Part shown: piece after piece, positions 18,001 to 21,000 of the stretch
Numbering within the stretch: position 1 is the first letter of the stretch
How the letters are laid out: each line of letters opens with the position of its first letter
IMG/VR virus record: IMGVR_UViG_2534681934_000023
Length of the DNA stretch: 24,660 nucleotides
Origin: a virus
Taxonomy: Duplodnaviria > Heunggongvirae > Uroviricota > Caudoviricetes
Direction: 5' to 3' (one strand)
Made by a program: the position numbers

Positions 18001-21000
18001 CTTCGTTAAAGCTGTATCCAAATCATTTCCGAAACAGGCTGGTACGTGGGGTAACACGGAAACACCAAACGGGACGGTTACAGTCACCATCAGCGATGAT
18101 CATAACTTTGACCGTCAAATCATTATTCCGCCCATTATCTTTAACGGAATAGCGTATAGCGATCCGGGAAGTGGTAATAACCCGGGAGGTACAAGATACA
18201 CGGGTTATGGTTTTGAAGTTCGCAAAAACGGTGTATTAATCGCATCCAGAGAAACTAAAGGGGCCATTCCCGGTAGCTACAGTGCGGTTATTGATATGCC
18301 GAGTGGCAGGGGAAGCGTCACTCTGGAGTTTAAGGTTTTCCATAAAGGCAATCAGCGGGCAGGTAATATCACCGACTGTACGGTGATTGTGACCAAAAAA
18401 GCGGCTTCCGGCATCAGTATCCGTTGAAATATTTATAACCCTAATAACGGGCGCCAGAAATGGCGCCTTTTTTATTGCAGAAAATCGGGAGGTAATTATG
18501 CGTAAAGTTTGTGCAGCAATTTTGTCCGCAGCCATTTGTCTGGCCGTATCCGGTGTGCCTGCATGGGCGTCTGAGCATCAGTCCACGCTGAGCGCAGGAT
18601 ATCTTCATGCCAGTACGGACGCTCCCGGCAGCGATGATCTGAACGGGATTAACGTGAAATACCGTTATGAGTTTACGGACACACTGGGGCTGATTACGTC
18701 CTTCAGTTATGCCAACGCCGAAGATGAGCAAAAAACGCATTACAGCGATACCCGCTGGCATGAGGATTACGTGCGTAACCGCTGGTTCAGCGTGATGGCA
18801 GGGCCGTCTGTGCGTGTGAATGAATGGTTCAGTGCGTATGCGATGGCGGGTGTGGCTTACAGCCGTGTGTCGACTTTTTCCGGGGATTATTTCCGCGTAA
18901 CTGACAACAAGAGGAAAACGCACGACGTGCTGACCGGAAGTGATGACGCTCGCTACAGCAACACATCTCTGGCGTGGGGGGCTGGCGTGCAGTTTAACCC
19001 GACCGAATCAGTGGCCGTTGATGTCGCTTATGAAGGCTCCGGCAGCGGTGACTGGCGCACTGACGGTTTCATCGTGGGTGTCGGTTATAAATTTTGATTA
19101 GTAACACAGCGTTATGACAGCCCGCCGGTTCAGGCGGGCTTTTTTGTGGAGTGGGTATGGCAGCAGTACAAATATCAGGCGTGCTGAAAGATGGTGCGGG
19201 AAAACCAATACAGAACTGCACCATTCAACTGAAAGCCAGACGTAACAGCACCACGGTGGTGGTGAACACGGTGGCCTCTGAAAATCCGGATGAGGCAGGG
19301 CGTTACAGCATGGACGTCGAGTATGGTCAGTACAGCGTCACTCTGTTGGTGGAGGGATTCCCGCCATCACATGCCGGGACCATCTCCGTGTATGAAGATT
19401 CTCAACCGGGTACGCTGAATGATTTTCTCGGTGCCATGACGGAGGATGATGCCCGTCCGGAGGCACTGCGTCGTTTTGAACAGATGGTGGAAGAAGCAGC
19501 GCGTCACGCAGAGGAGGCGAAGAAGAATGCCGGAGAAGCAGAGACGTCCGCGAGGAATGCCGGCATATCAGCCAGTAAGGCGGAAGCGAGCGCCGCAAAT
19601 GCTGATACTTCAGCAGAGGATGCATCGGAGTCAGCCCGGCAGGCGGCAGAAAGTGCAGCCTCTGCAAAGAAGTCAGAGGAAGCGTCCTCGTCCTCAGCCT
19701 CTGAGGCCGCTCAAAAAGCCAGTGAGTCATTACAAAGTGCAACAGATGCCGAGTTGTCAAAAAAGACGGCAGAAAGTGCAGCCGGTAATGCAGCCAGGGA
19801 TGCAACGACCGCAACAGAAAAAGCCCGGGAATCAGCAGAAAGCGCACAGTCAGCGGAACAAAGCAGAATAGCGGCGGAAGACGCCGTAAACAGAATTCCC
19901 ACCGTGGTGGGGCCTCCCGGACCAAAGGGGGAACCGGGTCCCGCGGGTCCTCAGGGGCCGAAGGGAGATAAAGGAGAGCGTGGAGACACCGGTCCGGCAG
20001 GGGCAACCGGTGAACGGGGACCGGGAGGAGATACAGGTCCGGCAGGTCCGCAGGGGCCGAAAGGCGACAGGGGAGAGCGGGGAGAGACCGGTCTGACAGG
20101 AAGTACAGGTCCACAGGGGCCAAAGGGAGATACCGGGGCAACAGGTCCGGCAGGACCGCAGGGACCGAAAGGGGAAACAGGTGCGGCTGGCCCGGTGGGG
20201 GCTACCGGACCTCAGGGGGCGAAGGGCGACCCGGGGGAGACACAAATACGGTTCCGTCTGGGGCCGATGAGAATTATTGAGACAAACAGCTATGGCTGGT
20301 TCCCGGGTACAGATGGTGCGCTCATCACCGGACTGACCTTTCTTGACCCCAAAGATGCCACACAGGTTCAGGGGATGTTTCAGCATTTGCAGGTCAGATT
20401 TGGTGACGGGCCATGGCAGGATGTTAAGGGACTGGATGAAGTGGGCAGTGATACAGGCAGAACTGGAGAATGACATGAATATTTTGAGAAAGCTTATGCA
20501 GAGTCTGTGCGGTTGCGGAAAGCATGATGACTGTGAAAACGGACGGTCACTTACAGCACAATTGCGACTGGGACCGGCAGACATTCTGGAGTCAGATGAG
20601 AATGGCATTATTCCGGAGCAGGACAGGGTAATCACACAGGTGGTGATACTGGATGCAGATAAAAAGCAGATACAGTGTGTGGTAAGACCGCTGCAAATCC
20701 TGCGTGCTGACGGGACGTGGGAAAATATTGGCGGGATGAAGTAACCCGACAGCTTCACAAAACCGGAGTCCGGCTCCGGTTTTTGTTGTCATGTCCGGTG
20801 GATGTTTGTTAGGAAAGCAAAGATGGCAAAACTGCTGGAGGTTTTGTGGTTGAGTATGCCAATATAATTAATAGATTAAAGAGTTAGTTGTGAAGAAAAT
20901 ATGGATAAACAGGACGACGAATGCTTTCACCGATAAGGACAACTTTCCATAACTCAGTAAATATAGTGCAGAGTTCACCCTGTCAAACGGTTTCTTTTGC

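Follow-up and report, generated by a model that had tools for sequence, protein, structure and literature searches.

What is the 89-residue protein encoded directly 3' of a side tail fibre gene, in the slot that Tfa occupies behind lambda-type fibres, and does it serve the fibre? The stretch of DNA analysed here (the window, 24,660 nucleotides of IMG/VR virus record IMGVR_UViG_2534681934_000023) presents such an arrangement. The original prediction, made from the sequence alone, had described an unknown Cys-containing protein that might act as an alternative fibre chaperone or as another accessory protein. The answer favoured here, with a probability of roughly 0.55, is that the small protein is a translated, non-essential accessory partner of fibres ending in a PfC domain, that it forms a PfC-type trimer, and that it is made by coupled initiation. 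PfC stands for the Phage_fiber_C domain (Pfam PF06820), which is rich in β-structure and about 62 residues long; we call the fibre's own terminal copy PfC(a) and the copy on the small protein PfC(b).

Organization of the fibre locus

The features of the locus are as follows.
19151-20473, + strand: side tail fibre gene, 440 aa (RefSeq WP_000741889.1; EPclA architecture)
20246-20437, + strand: PfC(a), fibre residues 366-429 (PF06820; by sequence a paralogue of PfC(b))
20465-20468, + strand: Shine-Dalgarno sequence GGAG of the small ORF, within the last fibre codons and 6 nt 5' of the ATG
20475-20744, + strand: small ORF, stand-alone PfC-domain protein, 89 aa plus stop (PF06820, PHROG 576 and RefSeq matches)
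20475-20555, + strand: N-terminal extension of the small protein, residues 1-27, predicted as a short amphipathic helix (residues 3-11) and a Gly/charged linker
20556-20741, + strand: PfC(b), residues 28-89 of the small protein (Pfam 5e-36; predicted all beta)
20759-20790, + strand: intrinsic terminator, stem AAAACCGGAG/CTCCGGTTTT and T run, ending the unit of fibre gene and small ORF

The fibre is built from PfN (PF08400), a coiled coil, collagen repeats and PfC(a), in that order, with Pfam matches to phage_tail_N (4e-68), Collagen (2e-17) and Phage_fiber_C (1e-33, residues 366-429). This domain architecture is that of EPclA, described together with EPclB among the collagen-like prophage fibres (Ghosh et al. 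2012, PMC3368898). The prophage in the window appears defective, with a frameshifted J gene and an inserted IS3-family element, and given this state its copy of the small ORF may be out of use. The small ORF borders a cargo region with nleB2, nleC and nleH1. A Tfa remnant (Caudo_TAP match 6e-16) is located at 23458-23610, 2.7 kb 3' of the small ORF.

The small protein belongs to a known family

Residues 28-89 of the small protein match PF06820 with a score of 123.3 bits (cut-off 25), and the match spans the whole model (profile positions 1-64 of 64). PHROG 576 matches the entire protein (positions 1-89 of 89), and a RefSeq entry annotated as "phage tail fiber C-terminal domain-containing protein" (WP_001024022.1) is 100% identical to it. 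NCBIfam has no model that matches the ORF. A total of 171 close homologues were identified, among them large clusters of intact 89-residue proteins. The original prediction had named a match to some known family, among other possible results, as something that would overturn its description of an unknown protein; the PF06820, PHROG 576 and RefSeq matches refute that description.

Judged by homology, the small protein is a paralogue of PfC(a), the C-terminal domain of the fibre directly upstream. Its residues 29-88 align with PfC(a) at 35% identity (E=5e-10), and eleven positions (R31, P34, I37, G44, P47, T54, L59, D60, Q74, G80 and W82) are invariant across the small ORFs and the fibre C-termini. 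The same relationship holds to the PfC domains of EPclA and EPclB, with which the protein shares 35% identity and the RLGP...DG.W signature; unlike those fibres, however, it has neither a shaft nor a virion-binding domain, and a helix and linker of 27 residues replace the collagen. The domain is described in PF06820 as the C-terminal end of a long fibre, following a collagen or other repeat shaft, and the small protein departs from this description as a stand-alone sub-type.

Sequence comparison further identifies the protein as one that is already catalogued, near-identical to 933W L0122, Sp5 ORF68 (ECs1229) and phi24B gp59. Together with VT2-Sakai H0138 these are the same 89-residue protein (933W and Sp5 copies, 96.7% DNA identity), and in the Stx phages it likewise starts one base 3' of the fibre stop and is followed by the same terminator. 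The fibre partner differs: in the window it is the 440-aa EPclA fibre, a side fibre of siphovirus type, of a defective, effector-carrying O157 prophage, whereas in the Stx phages it is a podovirus fibre of 649 aa. The N-terminal residues differ as well, RKLMQS...DDCENGR in the window against KKLMQR...DDRE(N/H)GE in the Stx-phage counterparts. Literature searches by locus tag returned no functional study of the small protein.

More distant relatives are found in Salmonella enterica, where three 79-residue homologues (P0129, P0152 and P0153) likewise stand alone, each combining a short N-terminal extension with a PfC domain. Their genes have an AGGAGG ribosome-binding site and start within the last part of a side fibre gene that itself ends in PfC; downstream of them lie a terminator and T3SS effector cargo. 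They differ from the E. coli proteins in their shorter linker and unconserved N-terminal Cys residues, and the fibre in front of them consists of PfN, Phage_fiber_2 repeats and PfC, without collagen. Between E. coli and Salmonella, PfC(b) is 54-59% identical and PfC(a) 41%.

Probable translation from the late fibre transcript

The fibre gene terminates with TGA at 20471-20473, and the ATG of the small ORF follows after a single base, C (20474). The junction, GGAGAATGACATG, with its 1-nt gap after a fibre end reading ...GSDTGRTGE, is identical in all 79 copies that have upstream sequence, and the final 11 codons of the fibre gene, within which the ribosome-binding site of the small ORF lies, show low synonymous diversity (pS 0.044 vs 0.127). 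The hairpin at 20759-20783 with its T run has a folding energy of -21.2 kcal/mol (z = -3.9 vs shuffles); a simple terminator scanner gave no call for 20759-20790, and the terminator was confirmed by folding instead. Related loci keep this terminator 3' of the small ORF and diverge from each other just beyond it. No promoter-like site was found within 19000-21000, so expression of the small ORF relies on the late transcript. Rfam returned no match in or near the ORF.

Peptides of a counterpart have been detected by mass spectrometry. In the examined portion of the phi24B virion proteomics supplement, gp59 is represented by VITQVVILDADKK and ADGTWENIGGMK, both unique to gp59, with 3 spectra per peptide vs 47 for the C-terminal peptide of the fibre. 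At 3 spectra per peptide, the gp59 in virion preparations could be trace contamination. Among the original expectations, coupling of the small ORF to the fibre gene through a good ribosome-binding site is supported by the 1-base gap, the GGAG and the constant junction, a terminator 3' of it is confirmed by the folded hairpin, and co-expression with the fibre is supported by the junction, the low pS of the last fibre codons and the gp59 peptides.

The same junction might be read in another way, namely that a programmed +1 frameshift or stop bypass at the fibre GAA-UGA-C yields a minor, longer fibre with tandem PfC domains, in which the small ORF would encode an extra C-terminal part. The UGA-C context makes for weak termination, and the small ORF lies in the +1 frame, which is open for 46 codons 5' of the ATG in 74 of the 79 E. 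coli copies. A natural mutational fusion exists (P0151), and the search database of the phi24B authors included fusion sequences and an entry labelled 'Spike or just gp59?'. We nevertheless regard a frameshift as very unlikely. A stop lies 10 codons upstream in one E. coli allele, and a Salmonella homologue has an in-frame TAA two codons 5' of its ATG; this TAA closes the upstream frame, so that independent initiation alone is conserved. Re-pairing from GAA to AAU would be unfavourable, and no slippery heptamer was seen at the junction. The zero-frame C-terminal peptide of the fibre is abundant, and that portion of the supplement contains no junction peptide. Nor was a frameshift signal found by Mondal et al. 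(PMC5155283).

Predicted structure and the Cys motif

The PfC domain of the fibre has been characterized as an autonomous trimerization domain that renucleates the collagen triple helix, and recombinant EPclA, Col-PfC and isolated PfC all trimerize without a partner (PMC3368898). Little or no α-helix was detected in the domain by CD (PMC3368898). An AF2 monomer of the small protein, with an overall pLDDT of 54 interpretable for secondary structure only, has six β-strands (residues 26-84) predicted at low confidence, with helix predicted just in the N-terminal extension. By homology to the EPclA/EPclB domains, the small protein is probably a β-rich trimerization head; for PfC(b), trimerization is suggested by the 35% homology. 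The solved structures contain no match to the small protein by sequence or by profile, and a Foldseek search of the AF2 monomer against the PDB returned only noise (best E=1.4).

Residues 1-27 have pLDDT values below 50, and the low-confidence linker holds a variable Cys motif, CGCGKHDDC, that had been proposed to bind metal. We reject a metal site of the form CxCx2Hx2C, since its ligand residues vary among homologues. Cys20, the third Cys of the motif, is replaced by Arg, and once by Ser, in most E. coli alleles, Cys14 is lost in two of the three Salmonella homologues (P0152 and P0153), and P0153 lacks Cys altogether in its N-terminal part. A lipoprotein or signal peptide was also considered and rejected on sequence grounds: the hydrophobic stretch comprises just LMQSL or LMQRL, the LCGC is atypical and unconserved, and the Cys is lost in Salmonella.

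Purifying selection on the small ORF

Of 80 related viral contigs, 78 carry the small ORF intact. Among 51 DNA alleles, PfC(b) has a pS of 0.13 and a pN of 0.0064, a pN/pS of 0.05 by pairwise estimate, and its variable sites fall at third codon positions in 20 cases vs 8 at first and second positions combined. PfC(a) at the same loci has a pN/pS of 0.24, and the N-terminal extension of the small protein one of 0.25. The small protein is therefore under strong purifying selection, and its PfC domain is five times more constrained than that of the fibre beside it. The intact copies and low pN/pS, together with family matches of E=5e-36 (PF06820) and E=2e-60 (PHROG 576), place the ORF beyond a chance reading frame.

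These values bear on the idea that the small ORF is a functionless relic of a fibre 3' end that has been displaced, preserved solely by linkage and by having spread recently among EHEC prophages. Draft genomes do contain many truncated or chimeric copies of the small ORF, joined to J, Lom, CII or NleG, and the prophage in the window is itself decayed. A relic is, however, difficult to reconcile with a pS of 0.13 alongside a pN of 0.006, with the intact copies in nearly all of the viral contigs, with the stand-alone architecture retained in Salmonella at 54-59% identity, or with translation as indicated by the gp59 peptides, and we consider it the least probable of the explanations.

A proposal by Mondal et al. 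(PMC5155283) holds instead that the ORF is a silent intragenomic reservoir of an alternative PfC, now and then swapped by recombination onto the fibre C-terminus to alter specificity, while the free protein has no role. The module is found in 697 of 5,426 complete E. coli genomes and EHEC genomes hold a median of 12 copies each. Rare hybrids occur too: P0063 fuses collagen repeats to PfC(b), with GERGP on one side of the join and ADILESD on the other, and P0125 combines the 5' part of a small ORF with the 3' part of PfC(a). The P0063 contig begins inside the gene, and a complete functional fibre is not demonstrable from it. Against this, none of the 50,697 phage records surveyed contains a full-length fibre with a PfC(b)-type end, and among 1.84 billion representative proteins the close relatives of PfC(b) are all short, with no full-length fibre among them. 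The DNA identity between PfC(a) and PfC(b) is 55%, and no exact match between the small ORF and the fibre gene is longer than 9 nt, where shuffled sequences give an expectation of 9.2; there is consequently no substrate for homologous exchange, and we reject homology-driven cassette exchange on the ground that the longest common run equals chance. A silent cassette would moreover not keep its Shine-Dalgarno sequence and ATG invariant, its extension constrained and its pN/pS at 0.05, and the gp59 peptides indicate translation. We judge this storage role to be unlikely.

Pairing with PfC-ended fibres

All 296 phage records that contain PfC(a) at at least 80% identity also carry PfC(b), which reaches 95% amino-acid identity or more in 293. 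Co-occurrence with collagen-repeat fibres had been suggested as a check, and the small protein indeed accompanies PfC-ended fibres in other phages throughout, while the Salmonella pair indicates that the fibre need not hold collagen.

As a small co-expressed gene directly 3' of a fibre gene, the small ORF resembles those of Tfa, gpU and gp38 (PF02413, Caudo_TAP), and some Tfa proteins remain bound to the fibre tip. This slot, the translational coupling, the presence of a Tfa-like sequence within 3 kb 3' in only 6 of 84 related loci and the constant company of PfC-ended fibres in every phage genome examined could all point to a substitute for Tfa, that is, to a dedicated chaperone needed for folding or trimerizing the collagen-like fibre. 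The small protein, however, has its homologue in the end domain of the fibre itself, and a Caudo_TAP search of it gave no match at E<=1, in agreement with the original observation that it does not resemble Tfa. The published classification of Sp5 genes, which refers to a K-12 host, puts ORF68 with the late genes that are non-essential and has the fibre gene ORF67 as essential (PMC5155283). This dispensability and the partner-free trimers of EPclA, Col-PfC and PfC, the last of which renucleates the triple helix by itself (PMC3368898), conflict with the suggested alternative chaperone, at least an essential one, and make such a function distinctly unlikely. Since Sp5 ORF68 is classed as non-essential on K-12, any role must be conditional or subtle.

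A conditional role might also be directed at the host. The T5 Llp and Cor proteins mediate superinfection exclusion or protect progeny by masking a receptor, and a free fibre-head domain could similarly mask the receptor to exclude superinfecting phages or shield progeny from cell debris. The homology to the distal, possibly receptor-binding, domain of the fibre, the dispensability for plaque formation and the position at the border of the nleB2/nleC/nleH1 cargo region would suit such a moron. The ORF has no promoter of its own, however, and lies 5' of the terminator, within the late unit; neither a signal peptide nor a lipobox can credibly be assigned to it, the hydrophobic stretch being too short, and it is more conserved than the fibre head, unlike a receptor mimic that tracks that head. 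A PADLOC search of the small ORF was without a match, and a defence or exclusion system was rejected as a candidate. Overall, we hold a host-directed function to be improbable.

A putative accessory partner of the fibre

That the protein is an accessory protein of the fibre, the second suggestion of the original prediction, remains the best reading. In this proposal, the small protein would be translated from the late fibre mRNA through coupled initiation and would fold as a PfC-type trimer, in which a short helix and linker take the place of the fibre shaft. It would then serve PfC-ended fibres by stabilizing, capping or modulating the distal head, or might itself constitute a head-only mini-fibre. 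Its association with the fibre is thus a presumed accessory role, and the protein would be neither a Tfa-type assembly chaperone nor a metal-binding protein nor a silent spare part.

A more specific version can be offered tentatively. As a free trimer, PfC(b) could be a true second fibre component, derived from a duplicated fibre end domain and placed in the Tfa slot of lambda-type fibres, that acts as a cap or adaptor on the distal head or as a released mini-fibre modulating receptor access, with an effect only on natural hosts, for example those bearing O-antigen. If the effect is confined to natural hosts, the dispensability of the small protein on K-12 would be explained.

The main outcome is negative: the "unknown Cys protein" belongs to a family that is already catalogued, and the metal motif proposed for it is not a genuine one. 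New here are the strength of the purifying selection, the 296/296 pairing and its non-collagen form in Salmonella, and the lack of fibre-gene homology for cassette exchange. Nearly all Stx-converting phages have PfC-ended fibres, as do most of the lambdoid prophages in EHEC that carry effectors, and the small partner protein of these fibres would offer a cheap and specific handle on what they bind.

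A stand-alone paralogue of the fibre end domain

The small ORF and the side tail fibre gene in front of it are arranged in tandem:

19151-20473, + strand, side tail fibre gene, 440 codons, with its TGA at 20471-20473
20475-20744, + strand, small ORF, 89 codons

The small ORF is a catalogued and previously discussed gene, a stand-alone paralogue of the Pfam PF06820 domain (PfC) that ends the fibre. The original prediction had taken its product for an unknown protein; all 89 residues, however, match PHROG 576 (‘tail fiber protein’, E=2e-60), and RefSeq names it in E. coli O157:H7 as ‘phage tail fiber C-terminal domain-containing protein’ (WP_001024022.1). 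NCBIfam holds no model for it. The small ORF’s copy of the domain, PfC(b), occupies residues 28-89 (PF06820, E=5e-36). The fibre’s own copy, PfC(a), occupies residues 366-429 (PF06820, E=1e-33) and shares 35% identity with PfC(b) (E=5e-10). The fibre’s domain order, PfN, coiled coil, collagen and PfC, is the EPclA architecture of Ghosh et al. (2012, PMC3368898), whose experiments showed that PfC trimerises autonomously, contains little helix and renucleates the triple helix of the collagen.

Positions 20200-21000 are 100% identical to O157:H7 chromosomes, where gpJ, lom and the fibre lie on one side of the small ORF and nleB2, nleC and nleH1-1 on the other. Its counterparts L0122 of phage 933W and H0138 of VT2-Sakai, with their relatives, show 96.7% DNA identity. 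Sequence and profile searches returned no solved relative. An AF2 monomer model, built from a 17-row alignment (pLDDT 54), places a helix at residues 3-11 and also shows six β-strands and a linker of low confidence; a Foldseek search with this model returned noise alone, and equally poor AlphaFold models of the fibre C-terminal domain were reported by the authors of the phi24B cryo-EM study.

The N-terminal CGCGKHDDC motif had been proposed to bind metal. All 79 copies compared (the window and 78 of 80 IMG/VR loci) keep Cys12, Cys14 and His17, and in most of these alleles Cys20 is replaced by Arg (once by Ser). Rarer alleles with Cys12 or Cys14 changed occur in a wider protein set. Among three Salmonella homologues, only P0129 retains Cys14, and in P0153 the N-terminus lacks Cys altogether. 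With Cys20 mostly Arg and Cys residues lost in Salmonella, a dedicated metal site is unsupported.

Expression signals and genomic setting

A single base separates the fibre TGA from the ATG of the small ORF, and a GGAG Shine-Dalgarno sequence (20465-20468) precedes this ATG by 6 nt. Downstream, a hairpin spanning 20759-20783 precedes a T run and has a folding energy of -21.2 kcal/mol (z = -3.9 against shuffles); a simple terminator scan did not report it. The anatomy first described for the gene, with 89 codons, a good ribosome-binding site and a terminator, is correct. A promoter scan found no promoter-like site within 19000-21000. Between lom and the fibre start, a strong terminator-like hairpin (19119-19140, + strand; 8 pairs, 7 of them G-C, and a T run) presumably makes fibre expression dependent on antiterminated late transcription. 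A 302-codon antisense ORF (19850-20758, - strand) spans the collagen repeats and the entire small ORF; it has no support, and coding sequence made of GGN-CCN repeats is expected to leave long open frames on the opposite strand.

The surrounding features are:

10543-11756, + strand, IS3-family insertion sequence among head/tail genes, with overlapping ORFs of 108 and 296 aa
15013-15807 and 15758-18427, + strand, host-specificity gene J in two overlapping frames
20921-24660, + strand, type III secretion effector cargo, starting directly after the small-ORF terminator
23458-23610, + strand, Tfa C-terminal fragment (Caudo_TAP, 6e-16, profile positions 80-125 of 131)

The cargo runs from NleB2 (SseK_NleB, 3e-181) through NleC (Peptidase_M85, 4e-115) to NleH1-1. 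From ~45 nt past the small-ORF stop onwards, related loci diverge, so that the conserved ORF and terminator mark the left edge of an exchangeable cargo region. The Tfa fragment, an incomplete pseudogene in RefSeq, is flanked by nleC and nleH1-1 and sits 2.7 kb past the fibre; of 84 related loci, only 6 have Tfa-like sequence downstream of the small ORF. Strain TR01 has J as a single CDS of 3414 nt; relative to it, a 1-nt insertion and a few substitutions near 15768-15775 shift the frame, and this central tail fibre gene is probably a pseudogene, unless the shift is a sequencing error. The IS3-family element carries an ALIL frameshift pseudoknot (Rfam, 10824-10940, 121 bits). With J split and this element among the tail genes, the prophage appears defective, and the window’s copy of the small ORF may therefore be idle.

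Selection on the small ORF

Across 51 distinct DNA alleles, the PfC(b) codons have a pS of 0.13 and a pN of 0.0064, a ratio of 0.05, which contradicts the idea that the small ORF is a relic; the ratio for the N-terminal 27 codons is 0.25. In the same loci pS is equal for PfC(a) (0.127), but the ratio there is 0.24, and the amino-acid changes of PfC(a) cluster at few positions. These values are pairwise estimates from non-independent alleles, but the contrast between the two copies is nonetheless large. Synonymous diversity is low (pS 0.044) in the last 11 fibre codons, which hold the ribosome-binding site of the small ORF, and the junction GGAGAATGACATG is invariant.

Linkage with PfC-ended fibres

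In a collection of 50,697 phage records, PfC(b) accompanies PfC(a) in all 296 records that carry the latter at 80% identity or above, and itself reaches 95% amino-acid identity or above in 293 of these. The fibres include some of siphovirus type (420-461 aa) and some of podovirus Stx phages (649-682 aa). Among 1.84 billion representative proteins the small ORF has 57 matches, all of at most 135 aa except two weak matches to long proteins. The sole divergent relatives are 79-aa Salmonella proteins, with 54-59% identity in PfC(b) as against 41% for PfC(a). In two loci (L083, L085) the Salmonella homologue overlaps the end of a side fibre with PfN, Phage_fiber_2 repeats, a PfC(a)-like end and no collagen, and is followed by a terminator and then effector cargo; it has an AGGAGG site. 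This pairing indicates that the partner is the PfC end domain rather than the collagen.

Mondal et al. 2016 (PMC5155283) suggested that the Sp5 counterpart, ORF68, may be a reservoir that supplies variation to the fibre. Rare hybrids (P0063, P0125) do exist, but look like illegitimate events. Neither the 50,697 phage records nor the 1.84 billion proteins contain a full-length fibre with a PfC(b)-type end, and the longest exact DNA run common to the small ORF and the fibre gene is 9 nt, as in shuffled sequence, which argues against such cassette exchange.

Draft genomes also contain many chimeras in which unrelated N-termini (J C-terminus, Lom, CII, a tape-measure fragment) are joined to the PfC part of the small ORF (examples among P0065, P0084, P0029, P0115 and P0015); in P0115 its 5' part is instead joined to NleG-like sequence. 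Several junctions fall at about residues 33-36 (...GP/ADILESDENG...), an apparent clustering. In P0148 (565 aa; L084, 3505-5202, metagenome read set SRR17035117), four or five tandem modules precede collagen repeats, and the module ends resemble PfC(b), e.g. TVVVLDADAKTATGQMGILQVRRADGTWMEIPALKG. By its sequence, this protein suggests that PfC-like units can also be internal repeats beside collagen in distant phages.

Counterparts studied experimentally

Nearly every Sp5 gene of unknown function has been deleted in frame (PMC5155283); the fibre gene ORF67 proved essential, and ORF68 was grouped with the non-essential late genes. These data, together with a recombinant fibre that trimerises alone (PMC3368898), contradict an essential chaperone and count against the chaperone role originally put forward. 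Fusion of fibre and small ORF by frameshifting could draw on a +1 frame that in E. coli contains no stop over the 46 codons upstream, but Salmonella has a TAA two codons 5' of the ATG. No slippery site was found, nor any frameshift signal for Sp5 ORF68 (PMC5155283), and the portion of the phi24B cryo-EM preprint supplement (2026, 10.64898/2026.04.10.717836) available to us lists no peptide across the junction between fibre and gp59, the phi24B counterpart. The same portion lists peptides VITQVVILDADKK and ADGTWENIGGMK, which map to gp59 only, with 3 spectra each against 47 for the fibre’s own C-terminal peptide, in an entry that the authors label ‘Spike or just gp59?’. The counterpart is thus translated, but of low abundance in purified phage. 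As to receptor masking or exclusion, the small ORF has no promoter, signal peptide or lipobox of its own, and PADLOC returned no match.

The small protein may trimerise, as the fibre domain does, and may bind the fibre. Taken together, the evidence favours an accessory partner of PfC-ended fibres, one that is translated, under selection and non-essential.
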